Below, one piece after another: positions 1 to 44,464 of a stretch of DNA of 44,464 bases. A model generated the notes under the pieces. That model saw only the letters and a list, made by a program, of their open reading frames with translations, ran no database searches and had not been told where the DNA came from. Both the position numbers and the translations under genes were made by a program. Every line of letters starts with the position of its first letter. Within the stretch, counting starts at the first letter, position 1. The stretch comes from a virus: UHGV virus genome UHGV-0192852; one strand, 5' to 3'.

Positions 1-111
1 ATACGCCAGGTTGCGTGAGTCCATCATGATTGATTTAGCTTCGGTCGCGATTTCGTGGTCGCGCAGTATGTTAGCCAGAATCTGGTTTTTAATGTCTTTT
101 GTCAGTCTCAT
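1..111 (-). CDS. hypothetical protein, N-terminal segment; the gene continues across the circular junction into 43794..44464
   Basis: ATG at 111..109 (MRLTKDIKNQ...) with AGGAC RBS upstream; frame is continuous with minus ORF 43794..44429 once the 17-bp terminal duplicate is collapsed. Confidence 0.6.
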   Translation of the reverse strand, partial: MRLTKDIKNQILANILRDHEIATEAKSIMMDSRNLAY

Positions 112-259
112 TTATGTGTCCTCGTGGTTGGTGTGCAACCAATATAATGCAACCAACATCCGCAATGCAAGCGAATTTTGCGATTATTTTTATCGCTGAT
201 AATATTAAGGCGTGAAGTCAAGCGGGTGGCCCGCTTTGCCACAATCCCAGGGGGATAGC
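112..259. promoter_or_regulatory. divergent promoter/operator region between the 254-aa minus gene and the scaffold gene
   Basis: TGCAACCAA motifs at 134..142 and 148..156; minus-strand reading gives TTGCAT-N18-TATATT (170..141) followed by GGTTGCACACCAAC and AGGAC RBS. Confidence 0.5.
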
Positions 260-5726: not shown

Positions 5727-5730
5727 CGAA

Positions 5731-5990
5731 GCGGGACAGGCGGGACGTCCCGTTTTGTCCCGCACCTCTAAAAACTGCATATTTACCCACCAACATTGCA
5801 TAAATTAAAAACGGGACAGGGGTGCTGTCCCGATCTGTCCCACCCCCAAATTGTGAATATCTATTCTGTTTTCGTGCATAAAACAAACGGGACAAAAAGC
5901 GGGACAGACAAGGGGCGGGACAAAGCGGGACAGCACCCTGTCCCTGCCAGTGCTGCCGCGGGGTTTAGCCGATCGGGACAGCGGGACAGC
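5731..5990. repeat. array of GCGGGACA(G) octamers in both orientations (copy A)
   Basis: about 14 copies of CGGGACA / TGTCCCG incl. palindromes CGGGACGTCCCG and GGGACAGGGGTGCTGTCCC; 5887..5945 nearly identical to 33738..33795. Confidence 0.8.
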
Positions 5991-5994
5991 ACCC

Positions 5995-6042
5995 CAGTCT
6001 TTCAGACTAGACGGGGGTCAATGGCCCCCTCGTCTGAGACTG
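5995..6042 (+). other. conserved 48-nt imperfect palindrome/hairpin (copy A)
   Basis: CAGTCTTTCAGACTAGACGGGGGTCAATGGCCCCCTCGTCTGAGACTG; outer CAGTCT/AGACTG, AGACG/CGTCT and GGGGG/CCCCC pairings; near-identical copy at 33846..33894. Confidence 0.75.
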
Positions 6043-15978: not shown

Positions 15979-16197
15979 TTATTTGCAGGTCGTCCTTTTG
16001 AAGTGGTCAACCGATACATACTGGAAGTTGAACGGGTATCCCGCCCTTAGCATTTTATGACCGCCGAAGTCGGCTACCCCAAAAACAGGGACAGAATACT
16101 CCATGCCGCTATTCACATATGTCGCGTCGCAGACCTTAGACGGCATAGTGGCACACCCTGATAGAAGGACCGCACAAATCATAATTAAAGTTTTCAT
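15979..16197 (-). CDS. small lipoprotein, candidate superinfection-exclusion protein (Cor/Llp-like)
   Basis: MKTLIMICAVLLSGC signal peptide with lipobox; CAGGAGAT RBS; divergent from and adjacent to tail fibre gene. Confidence 0.55.
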   Translation of the reverse strand: MKTLIMICAVLLSGCATMPSKVCDATYVNSGMEYSVPVFGVADFGGHKMLRAGYPFNFQYVSVDHFKRTTCK

Positions 16198-16277
16198 GGT
16201 ATCATCTCCTGTATTGGGTTGTGTTTTAGTATTACACCGCTCAATCAAGAATGCAACCAATTTAAGAGGATTTAGCT

Positions 16278-19898: not shown

Positions 19899-19952
19899 GA
19901 TGTTTTCCTTTTTAGTGGGAGGCAATACCGCCTCCCGACGAGTTAAATATAG

Positions 19953-19974
19953 TGCAACCAACCTATTGGTTGCA
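19953..19974. promoter_or_regulatory. perfect 22-bp palindromic operator-like site
   Basis: TGCAACCAA-CCTA-TTGGTTGCA; on minus strand followed by CTATATT (-10-like) upstream of gene 19305..19898. Confidence 0.6.
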
Positions 19975-20433
19975 AGTGAATTTTGCAACGTTTATCGCGT
20001 AAATTTTCGGGACCAAATCTCCGCACGCCCGACGAATTGCCGCGATGTTCTTCTCGCAATCTTCAATGATGACCAGTTCCGACACGTCCGCATAGCAGAC
20101 CATTTTGAACACGGCGCACGCCTTAAACTCTGGCGGCGGGGTATCGTCCAGCATGTGGCGCATAAACAACCGGCCTGTCGGGAATACTTCCAGTTGTTCG
20201 GCGGTGGTGTCCCAACATTCTCGCTGCCGGTTGGTCAGATACGCGATCTCGAAGCCTTGCTCTTTATACATGCGCAACAACGGCAGCATATCCATGTTCA
20301 GTTCTTCGCGGACGTGCGCTTTGTGCCACTTCGCCCAAAAGGTGGATTTAGTTTTTATCCCAGGCACCAGGTCGGCACGGGCATCGCTTGAACCGTTAAT
20401 AACGCCATCCAAATCGCAAATCAGTAATTTCAT
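19963..20433 (-). CDS. HAD-superfamily phosphatase (putative nucleotidase / polynucleotide 3'-phosphatase-like)
   Basis: N-terminal LICDLDGVI matches HAD motif I (DxDG). Confidence 0.55.
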   Translation of the reverse strand: MKLLICDLDGVINGSSDARADLVPGIKTKSTFWAKWHKAHVREELNMDMLPLLRMYKEQGFEIAYLTNRQRECWDTTAEQLEVFPTGRLFMRHMLDDTPPPEFKACAVFKMVCYADVSELVIIEDCEKNIAAIRRACGDLVPKIYAINVAKFTCNQ

Positions 20434-21430: not shown

Positions 21431-21458
21431 TTAAAAAGGGCGTCCAAACCGGACACCC
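21431..21458 (-). terminator. putative terminator overlapping promoter (minus strand)
   Basis: minus-strand GGGTGTCC-GGTTT-GGACGCCC hairpin followed by TTTTTAAT. Confidence 0.45.
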
Positions 21459-21460
21459 TC

Positions 21461-21494
21461 AATATAATGCAACCAATATGGTTATGCAACCAAT
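21461..21494 (-). promoter_or_regulatory. sigma70-like promoter with two TTGGTTGCAT motifs
   Basis: minus strand TTGGTTGCAT-AACCATA-TTGGTTGCAT-TATATTG, i.e. TTGCAT-N17-TATATT; 17-mer CAATATAATGCAACCAA shared with 140..156. Confidence 0.55.
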
Positions 21495-24366: not shown

Positions 24367-24398
24367 TTCTAAGTCCTCCTAACCGGCACACTATACCG

Positions 24399-24677
24399 CT
24401 ATGCGACCAATTCGGCAACCAATAAATCACAGTCGGCTATGTTGTCAATGACGCGAACATCAGCACCGCGGCGTACCATTCGATCATGTTCACGTACCTG
24501 GTGCGGCCTCGGTTTGCCGCCAGGGCGCTTCACTTCTACGAATACCACTTTGCCGTTTATGATTATAATCAGGTCGGGCGCGCCTGAGCGCCCCTCCCAT
24601 ATCACCTTACGGCAGAATCCGCCAACCGCTTTCACCAGCTTCATCAGGTGACTTTGTACCTTGCCTTCTGGTGTCAT
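24399..24677 (-). CDS. VRR-NUC domain nuclease
   Basis: GAPDLIIIINGKVVFVEVKRPGGKPRPHQ matches PD-(D/E)xK VRR-NUC core (D...E.K...Q). Confidence 0.7.
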   Translation of the reverse strand: MTPEGKVQSHLMKLVKAVGGFCRKVIWEGRSGAPDLIIIINGKVVFVEVKRPGGKPRPHQVREHDRMVRRGADVRVIDNIADCDLLVAELVA

Positions 24678-27946: not shown

Positions 27947-28003
27947 TTTCCAATTCCTCATTTTCACATGTATCGGGGTTATTGTGAGCCACCCCGTTCG
28001 GCT

Positions 28004-28026
28004 TGGTTGCTAATTTACTTGGTTGC
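28004..28026. promoter_or_regulatory. paired TTGGTTGC motifs upstream of SSB gene
   Basis: TTGGTTGC at 28004..28011 and 28019..28026 in intergenic region 27947..28036. Confidence 0.45.
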
Positions 28027-28036
28027 GCCTAAGCGG

Positions 28037-28279
28037 TCAAGCACTTTCATTAAAAAGATTTCTGGTAACGTAGTTGGTGGCGTTCTCGATCCAGCTTAAC
28101 GGCGGTCGGTCGCCATGTCTCGCGATCCACTCCACGGCGATGGTGCTGTAACCATCATCCAGCCAGCGGGTCGGATGGCGAATCATCCAGGCCACCATTA
28201 ACACGCCTTGCACGCAATGCAGGATAAAACCCAGCGCGCCGAGCAAAAACATCAATAAGATTGCAAATACTTTATTCAT
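28037..28279 (-). CDS. small membrane protein
   Basis: 80-aa ORF with N-terminal hydrophobic segments (VFAILLMFLLGALGFIL). Confidence 0.5.
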   Translation of the reverse strand: MNKVFAILLMFLLGALGFILHCVQGVLMVAWMIRHPTRWLDDGYSTIAVEWIARHGDRPPLSWIENATNYVTRNLFNESA

Positions 28280-30787: not shown

Positions 30788-30817
30788 ATAATAGATTGGT
30801 TGCAGGATGGGTGTCAA
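30788..30817 (-). promoter_or_regulatory. leftward early promoter (sigma70-like)
   Basis: minus strand TTGACA-N18-TATTAT with a TGCAACCAAT motif in the spacer. Confidence 0.6.
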
Positions 30818-30862: not shown

Positions 30863-30994
30863 TAACCAATAAGAGACAATGAGACGGAAAGTATTATTAC
30901 ACGCGTGCGCGCCCGTTTCAATATTCCAGAGGAGTTGACACCCTGCGGTTTTAGGTGTAGTTTCATTGGTCATTAACCAACTGGGGGCAGAACA

Positions 30995-31324
30995 ATGAAT
31001 GTAAACGACGCAATCGAAATGTTAACTAAGACTGTTTGCAGTGAGACTAGCCGGTCCTGGGCGTATACCGATGCCGTGGGTGCGGTGCTATTTGAAATCG
31101 AACGACTGCGCAGTGTCGAAAAAGAATTACGCGCCAGGCTGGAATTGCTCAATGGCACGGCAGCAAGCAAGCTGCAAAAGCACAATGAAGAAATGGAAGA
31201 ATACAAAAAGCAGGTTATCCGTTTGCGCGCCGAGGGTAAATCCTGGGCGATGATTGCCGAGTTGACCGGAATTAATCAGAGCACAGTGCGCTCCTGGGTA
31301 CGCAATAATAAAACTTCTAAGTAA
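30995..31324 (+). CDS. HTH DNA-binding regulator
   Basis: C-terminal GKSWAMIAELTGINQSTVRSWVRN helix-turn-helix; first rightward gene of the control region, upstream of primase. Confidence 0.6.
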   Translation: MNVNDAIEMLTKTVCSETSRSWAYTDAVGAVLFEIERLRSVEKELRARLELLNGTAASKLQKHNEEMEEYKKQVIRLRAEGKSWAMIAELTGINQSTVRSWVRNNKTSK

Positions 31325-33603: not shown

Positions 33604-33687
33604 TGCGCGCATTGGTTGCCATGTTGGTTAATTTCTGCGCGCATTGGTTGCCAAATTGCGTGTTTTTAGCTGGTAGTATTGGTTGCC
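33604..33687 (+). promoter_or_regulatory. direct repeats carrying three TTGGTTGCC motifs
   Basis: TGCGCGCATTGGTTGCCA at 33604..33621 repeated at 33636..33653; third TTGGTTGCC at 33679..33687. Confidence 0.6.
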
Positions 33688-33737
33688 GTTCGGTGTGATT
33701 ACTATGAATAGTTATGCAATAAAACTGCATAAACTAA

Positions 33738-33840
33738 GCGGGACAAAAAGCGGGACAGACCAGGGGCGGGACAAAGCGGGACAGCACCCCCGTCCCGCCC
33801 CGGATGACGCGGCCTGGCGGGGAGCGGGACAGGCGGGACA
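33738..33840. repeat. array of GCGGGACA(G) octamers (copy B)
   Basis: GCGGGACAAAAAGCGGGACAGACCAGGGGCGGGACAAAGCGGGACAGCACCC almost identical to 5887..5945; further copies to 33840. Confidence 0.8.
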
Positions 33841-33845
33841 ACTCC

Positions 33846-33894
33846 CAGTCTTTCAGACTAGACGGGGGTCAGTGGCCCCCCTCGTCTGAGACTG
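33846..33894 (+). other. conserved imperfect palindrome/hairpin (copy B)
   Basis: CAGTCTTTCAGACTAGACGGGGGTCAGTGGCCCCCCTCGTCTGAGACTG; two differences from copy A. Confidence 0.75.
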
Positions 33895-34054
33895 CATAAA
33901 ATCCGGGGATTGCAAAATACACGGCAGCATGTTGCGGATTGCGGTCGTCGACGAACCCGGCAACCAATGCGAGTTGCAGAATGGAGAGTGAAAAATGCAG
34001 TTTGCAGTTACAGCAGATAGCGATCAACTTTTTCATGCGCGTGATTAATATTGG

Positions 34055-34097
34055 TTGCATTCGTGCCAGCACCCTGCTAGATTGGTTGCACACCAAC
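34055..34097 (+). promoter_or_regulatory. sigma70-like promoter with conserved leader element
   Basis: TTGCAT-N17-TAGATT followed by GGTTGCACACCAAC and AGGAC RBS; same architecture as the minus-strand promoter at 170..141. Confidence 0.55.
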
Positions 34098-34111
34098 ATG
34101 AGGACCGAACA

Positions 34112-34402
34112 ATGAAAAAACTAATCTGGAATTACACAATGGCCCTGGCGAAGCCGGTCGAAGTGAAACACACAAACGGCAGCGCACCAGAGGCGTTCAT
34201 GACCGCTCCGGCCTGGCATGCGATCATTAACGCGACCGCGGGCATGGAAGACCCCAAGCCGTTGCGCGCGGCTATCAGGGCTTACGCGCTGGCATTTGCC
34301 CGCGAGCGCCTGGCATATCGCTTCGGTGTTGGCGATAAGGCAGTGACAAACATCGCCCGGATTAAAGCCCAGCGTGAGCTATTCGCCCAGCTTGAGAAAT
34401 AA
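34112..34402 (+). CDS. hypothetical protein
   Basis: ATG 34112 (MKKLIWNY...) with GAGGA RBS, in frame within track ORF 34055..34402. Confidence 0.5.
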   Translation: MKKLIWNYTMALAKPVEVKHTNGSAPEAFMTAPAWHAIINATAGMEDPKPLRAAIRAYALAFARERLAYRFGVGDKAVTNIARIKAQRELFAQLEK

Positions 34403-34411
34403 GGGGCCAAA

Positions 34412-34681
34412 ATGAGCCGTAGGCGAGCAAAACAGCTTTCGTGGCATATTCCACTGCATTGCATACGAATATGGGCTAAGAATGCGGTTGAGGGCGAATC
34501 TATATTCTGGAGCTATCGCGACGACGTGAAGCCGTTGACGCAGACTCGCTACTTGCACCAGTTCGCTGCACAACACGATTTCAGGGTGCGGACTTCCTTG
34601 CAACCAATGGGGATTCGTATTACATTACGCCGGAAGCCCGCCGTTGAGCGGGTGGGCAAACACTGGAGACTGAGCAAATGA
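34412..34681 (+). CDS. hypothetical basic protein
   Basis: 89-aa ORF, Arg-rich. Confidence 0.4.
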   Translation: MSRRRAKQLSWHIPLHCIRIWAKNAVEGESIFWSYRDDVKPLTQTRYLHQFAAQHDFRVRTSLQPMGIRITLRRKPAVERVGKHWRLSK

Positions 34682-37104: not shown

Positions 37105-37112
37105 CCTAGCAA

Positions 37113-37135
37113 GCCCGGAACTATCCGGGCTTTTT
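37113..37135 (+). terminator. rho-independent terminator after lysis cassette
   Basis: GCCCGGA-ACTA-TCCGGGC hairpin followed by TTTTT. Confidence 0.7.
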
Positions 37136-37140
37136 ATCGC

Positions 37141-37179
37141 TTGACTTGCAACCAATTATCAGACCATACTGCGACCAAT
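37141..37179 (+). promoter_or_regulatory. promoter/operator region with TGCAACCAAT and TGCGACCAAT motifs
   Basis: TTGACT at 37141..37146, motifs at 37147..37156 and 37170..37179, upstream of AGAGGA RBS and small ORFs. Confidence 0.45.
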
Positions 37180-37279
37180 CAACAAGAGGAGTATTACACT
37201 ATGGCACGTAATGATATTTGGGTATTGGCAATCTTGTCCGCCGCAGCATTTATAGGCATGGTTATTTGTGAGGTGATGT

Positions 37280-43793: not shown

Positions 43794-44464
43794 TTAGCGA
43801 GGAATGCCGCAAATCTCGTTGAGTGTTTTCACATCCAGCGCCACCGCCGTGGATTTTGGCTTGTCCGGGTAAGGGATGAATTGCTCAACTTCAGGCCATG
43901 CCTTGATCAGCTTCTTATCGGTATTGTGCATATCCAGCACGCCGGTCACAGTTAGCTTGAATGCGTCATACTTCGCACGCAACTCGCGGCGGGCCTTGTC
44001 GTTACGGTCCAGGCGCTTGCAGAAATCATGGTCCGCCGGATAGTCTATACGACCGCGTGGCTTATATATCGGCAGCGCTTTCCCGTCATCGTCTAATTCG
44101 CACACTGACGCTAACATAATTTCCTCATACCCTGGCACAATATCGCCGAGATCGGGAGACAGCTTATTCATGTATTTATACTCCCAGTATCCGCGATGTA
44201 CTCGGTATTGGAGTCCGTCGCCGCTCAATGACAAGGTGCGAACGTTACCGCCTGCGTTGATTTCGAAAGTGGCATCGTAAACGCCGCCAATACCTTTTGG
44301 GCGGTCGGTGTTATAACTATACGTCGCCTTGTTGGTGTATACGCAGACGCCGTACATCTGCGACGGGTCATCGCTGATTGCTTCAATGTGCGCACGTAGC
44401 TCGGCGAACGTATGAATGCCCACCGGCATACAGTGTAACGTAATGTCATACGCCAGGTTGCGTG
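43794..44464 (-). CDS. hypothetical protein, C-terminal segment of the 254-aa gene spanning the circular junction
   Basis: minus ORF open to the window end; joins in frame with 111..1 after removing the 17-bp duplicate. Confidence 0.6.
   Translation of the reverse strand, partial: RNLAYDITLHCMPVGIHTFAELRAHIEAISDDPSQMYGVCVYTNKATYSYNTDRPKGIGGVYDATFEINAGGNVRTLSLSGDGLQYRVHRGYWEYKYMNKLSPDLGDIVPGYEEIMLASVCELDDDGKALPIYKPRGRIDYPADHDFCKRLDRNDKARRELRAKYDAFKLTVTGVLDMHNTDKKLIKAWPEVEQFIPYPDKPKSTAVALDVKTLNEICGIPR
44448..44464 (+). repeat. terminal duplicate of positions 1..17 (circular assembly overlap)
   Basis: ATACGCCAGGTTGCGTG present at both window ends. Confidence 0.9.

Follow-up and report, generated by a model that had tools for sequence, protein, structure and literature searches.

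A recurrent 10-bp word at two promoter-leader cassettes and further promoters of a Dhillonvirus genome, read as a putative phage operator

Two promoter-leader cassettes and the genes behind them

The window analysed here, a stretch of viral DNA of 44,464 nucleotides (UHGV-0192852), was identified by megablast as a complete, circularly permuted genome of the genus Dhillonvirus. This genus holds the E. coli siphophages of the HK578/SSL-2009a/SO-1 group, with 85-90% nucleotide identity across most of the genome. Bases 1-17 are repeated at 44448-44464 (ATACGCCAGGTTGCGTG); this 17-base terminal repeat is the assembly overlap of a circular or circularly permuted genome, and the circle measures 44,447 bp. 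Two genes, referred to as A and B, lie behind the cassettes described in this section:

34100-34402, plus strand: gene A with its ribosome-binding site (GAGGAC at 34100-34105), ATG at 34112, 96 aa, PHROG 9839, function unknown.
1-123, minus strand: start of gene B, with GAGGAC at 123-118, ATG at 111 and the first 37 codons.
43794-44464, minus strand: remainder of gene B; the reading frame runs from 111 to 1 and then from 44447 to 43794, and 44448-44464 duplicate 1-17.

Because its reading frame spans this junction, gene B is complete, at 254 aa, only in the circular reading. Its product gave a full-length match to the Nmad5 domain (PF18757, E = 7e-56). The gene A and gene B proteins share no BLASTP hit and no similarity, which agrees with the preliminary description of two unrelated downstream genes. 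The elements upstream of the two genes are as follows:

34051-34060, plus strand: upstream word copy of site A, TTGGTTGCA; the −35-like hexamer TTGCAT (34055-34060) consists of its final five bases and a T.
34061-34077, plus strand: 17-nt spacer of site A, variable in sequence and fixed in length among relatives.
34078-34083, plus strand: −10-like hexamer of site A, TAGATT, which is TATATT in most relatives.
34082-34097, plus strand: start-site word and dyad of site A, TTGGT-TGCAC-ACCAA(C), with a start predicted at 34090 from the hexamer distance.
34084-34097, plus strand: GGTTGCACACCAAC of site A, directly after the −10.
170-165, minus strand: −35-like hexamer of site B, TTGCAT, followed by an 18-nt spacer.
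148-156, minus strand: spacer copy of TTGGTTGCA in site B, 1 nt upstream of the −10.
146-141, minus strand: −10-like hexamer of site B, TATATT, conserved.
140-127, minus strand: GGTTGCACACCAAC of site B, directly after the −10.
127-142, minus strand: start-site word and dyad of site B, TTGGT-TGCAC-ACCAA(C), with a start predicted at 134.

The architecture that had been noted for both genes, namely TTGCAT, a spacer of 17-18 nt, TA(T/G)ATT, a shared block and a ribosome-binding site, was found at both sites. Pairwise alignment of the two regions returned a common TTGGTTGCAT and a 26-nt block, TA[G/T]ATTGGTTGCACACCAAC[C]A[T/C]GAGGAC, and GGTTGCACACCAAC has exactly two occurrences in the window. 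The −35-like and −10-like hexamers, 17-18 nt apart, follow the sigma-70 layout, and sites A and B are probably sigma-70-type promoters of the form TTGCAT, 17-18 nt, TA(G/T)ATT. A consensus promoter scan called neither of them, because TTGCAT matches only three of the six bases of TTGACA; the same scan called the sister promoters at 24418, 19975, 30817, 28040 and 37141. Both starts, predicted from the usual 7-nt distance after the −10, fall on the A of TTGCA.

The conserved symmetry within the cassettes is TTGGT-N5-ACCAA, centred on the predicted start. When four other full genomes (PaulFeyerabend, SO-1, bob and UAE_MI-01) were compared with this one, exactly three such dyads were observed in each of the five, always just past a −10 hexamer: at site A, at site B and at the promoter of a gene for a 109-aa helix-turn-helix (HTH) protein. 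Versions of the dyad with N3, N4 or N6 spacing were absent from the four other full genomes.

Every Dhillonvirus genome examined carried both cassettes at these two positions. When viral contigs were scanned for the 16-mer TTGGTTGCACACCAAC, most contigs of Dhillonvirus size had two copies, without exception one at each cassette: the A position follows the helicase-primase gene and the repeat region, and the B position separates the spanin gene from the scaffold gene. Of the 76 hits, about 50 lay inside unrelated coding sequences of other viruses. A related-locus search with gene A was less productive and yielded only four loci. Among 16 distinct sequences of site A, the −35, the −10 and GGTTGCACACCAAC were essentially invariant, which supports the earlier suggestion of an operator overlapping the start site; the loci were found by exact 16-mer match, which inflates the apparent invariance of that word copy. 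The upstream word was nearly invariant in the same set, with one relative reading TTGGTTGCG, and roughly half of the 17 spacer positions varied without any indel. At site B, the hexamers were conserved in 14 B-type sequences, and one lineage carried a 1-nt deletion.

The word across the genome

Taken alone, the exact 17-mer shared by the two sites is weak, as a repeated 17-mer appeared in 31 of 100 dinucleotide shuffles. Since such a match is not improbable by chance, the case for a cassette rests on its context. The core TTGGTTGCA has 12 exact copies in the genome. Among all 10-mers, ATTGGTTGCA (aTTGGTTGCa) is the most strongly over-represented, with 10 copies where a third-order Markov model predicts 0.10. 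The form TTGGT[TC]GC has 25 copies, of which 18 lie in the non-coding 6.8% of the genome (binomial P = 3e-16) and three more in the last codons of a gene, just before the next gene. Alignment of 20 sites gave a sharp consensus, aTTGGTTGCa, between uninformative flanks. Besides sites A and B, the word was located at the following promoters and sites:

30935-30981, plus strand: HTH-gene promoter, with TTGACA (30935-30940), 17 nt, TAGTTT (30958-30963) and the third dyad; kept in 12 of 13 relatives.
30965-30981 (core 30966-30980), plus strand: third dyad, ATTGGT-CATTA-ACCAAC, its core 2 nt past the −10; also in the four other full genomes.
30788-30817, minus strand: strong leftward promoter TTGACA-18-TATTAT (11 of 12 matches), with a reverse word in the spacer (30796-30804 in plus-strand writing).
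28003-28040, minus strand: promoter of the ssDNA-binding protein gene, TTGACC-17-TAAATT, hexamers spanning 28040-28012; two reverse words, at 28019-28027 in the spacer beside the −10 and at 28003-28011 directly after the −10.
24390-24422, minus strand: promoter TTGCCG-17-TATAGT; its −35 carries TTGGTTGCC and its spacer TTGGTCGCA.
21461-21493, minus strand: promoter TTGCAT-17-TATATT, with two word copies, one covering the −35 (21485-21493) and one within the spacer (21468-21476).
19946-19975, minus strand: promoter TTGCAA-18-TATATT, built on the palindrome TGCAACCAA-tagg-TTGGTTGCA (19953-19974).
16228-16260, minus strand: promoter of the Cor superinfection-exclusion gene, with the word on the −35 (16252-16260), 17 nt and TGT-AATACT.
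37141-37182, both strands: overlapping promoter-like pair, TTGACT-18-CATACT on the plus strand (37141-37170) and TTGATT-16-GATAAT on the minus strand, sharing two words (37147-37155 and 37170-37178), after the lysis-gene terminator.
33611-33687, plus strand: three direct repeats of ATTGGTTGCC, bordering on the left a repeat-rich non-coding region past the helicase-primase gene.
33959-33967: inverted word copy on the other flank of the iteron region.

Copies of the word are usually found two or three per promoter and in either orientation. The word lies on the −35, with TTGCAn as the hexamer, at site A, 21489, 24418 and 16256, and in the spacer at site B, 21468, 19953 and 24402, ending 1-2 nt before the −10 at the first three of these. 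At site A, site B and 37155 it crosses the −10/+1 junction, its first TT being the end of the −10. Reverse-oriented copies occupy the spacer and/or the position directly after the −10 at 30817, 28040 and 37141, and these three promoters carry an independent strong −35 (TTGACA, TTGACC and TTGACT). Copies without an evident useful promoter are located at 34599, inside a gene, and at 33612-33687 and 33959, around the iteron region. The copy at 34599-34607 (minus strand) is an exact word, antisense in an 89-aa gene (34412-34681); no convincing −10 follows it, and it is kept in all four other full genomes.

Several further structures were observed in the vicinity of these sites. On the minus strand at 21432-21466, a terminator-like hairpin (AGGGTGTCC-ggttt-GGACGCCCT, then TTTTT) begins within one base after the −10 TATATT; the predicted start falls inside its 5' arm, so that transcripts from upstream might terminate there and locally started ones read through. 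The palindrome at 19953-19974 is a near-perfect one of 22 bp, with two words tail to tail between two minus-strand early genes, and a GC-rich hairpin follows the promoter that bears it. The Cor-type gene (PHROG 1119; 15979-16260, minus strand) lies on the opposite strand in the tail module, and its own word-bearing promoter has an extended −10. At 37105-37210, a bidirectional terminator hairpin (GCCCGGAACTATCCGGGC) follows the lysis genes and precedes the overlapping promoter-like sites; the minus-strand site would yield only a very short RNA ending at this terminator, and the plus-strand site may be a late-operon promoter. The non-coding regions 5729-6042, which precedes the tape-measure gene, and 33737-33895, which follows the helicase-primase gene, have in common long identical stretches and numerous copies of (A)GCGGGACA(G), direct as well as inverted, and their equivalents in the SO-1 GenBank record are annotated as repeat regions A and B. 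Their layout recalls that of phage P4, in which ori and crr form an origin plus a second cis replication region.

In the four other full genomes, the word was found at the same ~20 syntenic places. Alignment of ten promoter regions showed conservation of the word and the hexamers, with spacers that vary in sequence at constant length. Invariant columns made up 146 of 171 (85%) in the word versus 772 of 1274 (61%) elsewhere (odds ratio 3.8, P = 3e-11). Two distant relatives (L086 and L088), reached via homologues of the HTH protein, differ in promoter layout and are strongly diverged between genes. There too, ATTGGTTGC occupies intergenic positions, as the most over-represented 9-mer of L088 and one of the top four of L086.

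As in an operator set, a short word is over-represented, concentrated in non-coding DNA and placed over core promoter elements. From this distribution, the word appears to mark about ten promoter regions and the putative origin region as a genome-wide regulon. The conserved regulatory cassette of the preliminary description can therefore be retained as a conserved sigma-70-like promoter and not as a feature restricted to two genes, given that the word stands at about ten promoters. In the same way, the pair is not an isolated duplication but part of a genome-wide word, and the term "duplicated" may still fit the additional shared leader, CACCAAC..GAGGA.

A candidate binder and the competing readings

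The protein considered as a binder of the word is encoded near one of the three dyads:

30995-31324, plus strand: gene of the 109-aa HTH protein; it opens the rightward operon and is followed directly by the helicase-primase gene.

Among 24 products scanned against Pfam (23 early-region genes and the scaffold-like protein at 257-961), this was the only one with a DNA-binding or HTH domain, scoring 30.9 bits for HTH_23, 28.4 for HTH_28 and 27.7 for Sigma70_r4_2, all above the curated cut-offs. Its AlphaFold2 model (mean pLDDT 85) consists of a long helix (residues 26-79) and then the HTH (84-107). Foldseek superposed the HTH, at ~1 A over 34-46 residues, on the DNA-binding domains of LuxR/GerE regulators, IstA transposase and resolvases, in short alignments with weak E-values. 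A PDB sequence search with the HTH profile returned only a designed repeat protein and coiled-coil noise. In 20 cluster representatives, the C-terminal 60 residues are nearly invariant (…GKSWAMIAE-TGIN-STVRSWVRN) and the N-terminal 45 are hypervariable. The protein was detected by tblastn in 155 phage records, nearly all labelled Dhillonvirus or phages of its enterobacterial hosts. Its public labels are "transposase", "resolvase" and "Gam", none of which is supported by its domain content.

The spread of this protein among phages matches that of the word, a co-occurrence that comes without covariation because protein and word are both invariant. We tentatively name the 109-aa protein as the most likely binder; another early protein of unknown fold could also bind the word. 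A single HTH normally reads fewer than 10 bp, which counts against this protein reading the 10-bp word.

On balance, we lean towards the reading in which the word is the operator of a phage-encoded DNA-binding protein at about ten promoters, with the 109-aa protein as the likeliest binder. Host sigma-70 polymerase would start transcription at the word-bearing promoters, and the HTH protein, made early from a promoter with a consensus −35, would then bind the word. Bound on the −35, in the spacer or at the −10/+1 junction, it would compete with or contact RNA polymerase. Promoters with words that flank the −10 or cover +1 (sites A and B, the HTH gene's own, 28040 and 30817) would be turned down, and the bound protein may help at the weak TTGCA −35 sites. 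Of the two signs of regulation, repression is favoured. The dyads at site A, site B and the HTH promoter suggest dimer binding and co-regulation of the three promoters, including autoregulation. As the product of the first gene of the rightward early operon, the HTH protein would work like a Cro-type early regulator.

Five promoters place TTGCAn exactly 16-18 nt before a good −10, the word contains the TTG of the −35 consensus and 16 of 20 sites have A at position −1 of an A-rich upstream flank. These features would also fit a core promoter element, an extended −35-type signal for host RNA polymerase, alone or modified by a phage factor in the manner of the MotA box at T4 middle promoters, and the match of the candidate protein to the Sigma70_r4_2 profile points the same way. 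This alternative is nevertheless unlikely. The word also occurs reversed, in the spacer and across the −10/+1 junction; three promoters already have a strong −35; and all 20 sites keep TTGG, the part of the word that the hexamer does not include. A protein operator would work in both orientations and three registers and a core element would not, which is why the operator is preferred.

A stronger proposal, which we rate as rather unlikely, is that the 109-aa protein acts as a single master factor, whose target, a −35-like word, would be read at all phage promoters as well as in the origin region. With rising levels, the protein would stand in for a −35 or activate transcription at weak TTGCA promoters, and would form a roadblock where copies lie in the spacer or at +1. 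If true, the timing of the entire phage programme would be under its control and tied to the start of replication, and the cassette would be a portable, programme-wired socket for swapping accessory or anti-defence genes.

The word and the cassette might instead serve DNA transactions, as a replication origin, in helicase loading or as boundaries guiding recombinational module exchange. Three direct words and one inverted word flank an iteron-rich region beside the helicase-primase gene, the gene of the candidate binder lies immediately upstream of that same gene, and the sequence break between alternative genes behind the cassettes falls right after CACCAAC(A) or after GAGGA. This account is very unlikely for most of the copies, which are registered to −35/−10 hexamers in about ten intergenic regions, a thing that a single origin does not need; a mosaic break past the promoter would be expected for any conserved promoter. 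An origin or recombination role may apply to the copies at 33612-33967, alongside the transcriptional role elsewhere.

Even less credence can be given to a host FadR/GntR-type regulator such as PdhR, which by reading the sites would tie phage early genes to host metabolism. The half-sites of the dyad, ATTGGT/ACCAA(C/T), are identical in letters to those of the E. coli PdhR box, AATTGGTnnnACCAATT (PMC7660256). Their spacing, however, is five and not three, and TTGGT-N3-ACCAA had 0 matches in the window at up to one mismatch. Moreover, most phage copies are single asymmetric 10-mers with an additional invariant TGC that is absent from the PdhR box, and the word follows the phage lineage, including a phage isolated on Sodalis.

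The cassette block had also been drawn as a GGTTG-CACAC-CAACC hairpin of the 5' leader. An RNA hairpin of this kind (GGUUG-CACAC-CAACC), governing translation or stability of both mRNAs, is the least probable of the weighed alternatives. Within this phage, the CAACC arm exists only in site B, where a stem of 5-6 bp can be drawn (−5.6 kcal/mol with the 5' arm, z = −1.2 versus shuffled sequence), and relatives conserve the arms. CAACA, with a shorter stem, is nevertheless the reading at site A and in most relatives, and the site A fold with the 5' arm reached only −3.3 kcal/mol (z = +0.2). With starts predicted on the A of TTGCA (34090 and 134), GGTTG would stay outside the transcript, and the short leaders from the predicted +1, ACACCAAC...AUG (about 22 nt), were unstructured (0 to −0.4 kcal/mol). 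The stem columns are invariant in relatives, the change from CAACC to CAACA being the sole one, which leaves no paired changes to score. Placed 2-3 nt before the ribosome-binding site, the stem leaves that site free, and a search of the whole window with Rfam 15 at gathering thresholds gave 0 matches. Identical arms are present at the third promoter, and other copies of the word lie where there is no leader. The cassette hairpin is better read as a DNA dyad, and the RNA reading is unlikely.

A sigma-54 reading (TGGCAC-N5-TTGCA) was ruled out by hand, as the GG-to-GC spacing never fits.

Exchangeable genes and relation to known phage systems

The cassettes stayed constant between phages, and the genes downstream of them were swapped. 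Behind cassette B, the Nmad5 gene is carried by this phage and PaulFeyerabend; SO-1 (L003 5082-5600) has an unrelated 172-aa gene there, and in UAE_MI-01 (L009 37240-38378) an unrelated 104-aa gene comes first and an Nmad5 gene truncated at its 5' end second. The truncated gene behind the 104-aa gene suggests insertion by recombination at the cassette. At cassette A, an extra 59-aa gene precedes the gene A homologue in SO-1 and one metagenomic phage. The cassette may thus be a fixed expression socket before exchangeable accessory genes.

A moron, in the concept of Hendrix and Juhala, is an accessory gene with its own promoter inside a phage late operon. The GenBank note for the 172-aa gene behind cassette B of SO-1 describes gp07 as a "possible moron gene product". 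In the present genome, gene B and the Cor gene are like morons in lying on the opposite strand in the structural module, each with its own promoter. The gene B slot, oriented against the late operon, varies in content between relatives and holds unrelated genes in different phages. Unlike that of a moron, its promoter is not private: it carries the genome-wide word and the dyad of the regulator's own promoter, so that the cargo would be wired into the phage programme.

Lambda Cro is a small HTH protein that binds multiple OR/OL operators over the −35, the −10 and the start of early promoters, including its own. The 109-aa protein is likewise a small HTH protein, encoded by the first gene of a rightward early operon at a divergent promoter region with replication genes next, and several copies of the putative operator cover the −35, the −10 and the start site, its own promoter included. 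It differs from Cro in several respects. There is no sequence homology, the word is an asymmetric 10-mer and not a 17-bp pseudo-palindrome, it stands at about ten promoters and not two, and this phage has no cI partner or lysogeny module.

T4 middle promoters combine a MotA box at ~−30 with a sigma-70 −10 and are served by MotA/AsiA sigma appropriation. Here too, a phage word of 9-10 bp replaces or overlaps a weak −35 before a normal −10 at a subset of promoters, and the candidate factor has a sigma region-4-like HTH. In contrast to the T4 promoters, the word is also found in the spacer, across +1 and reversed, and the Pfam and PHROG scans revealed no homologue of MotA or AsiA.

No description of promoters, of regulators or of the word was found in the literature on Dhillonvirus, HK578 or SSL-2009a, genome papers included. 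The putative regulon is undescribed but of a conventional type among phage regulatory circuits. Dhillonviruses are among the most often isolated E. coli siphophages, are part of the BASEL collection and have been used in defence-system and phage-engineering studies. The 10-bp putative operator word, the map of about ten promoters and a named candidate regulator together provide a testable model of the early-to-late programme. The regulator reading would also explain the mis-annotation of the 109-aa gene. Sites A and B, as two conserved sockets, are possible insertion points at which foreign genes may be placed with native timing.
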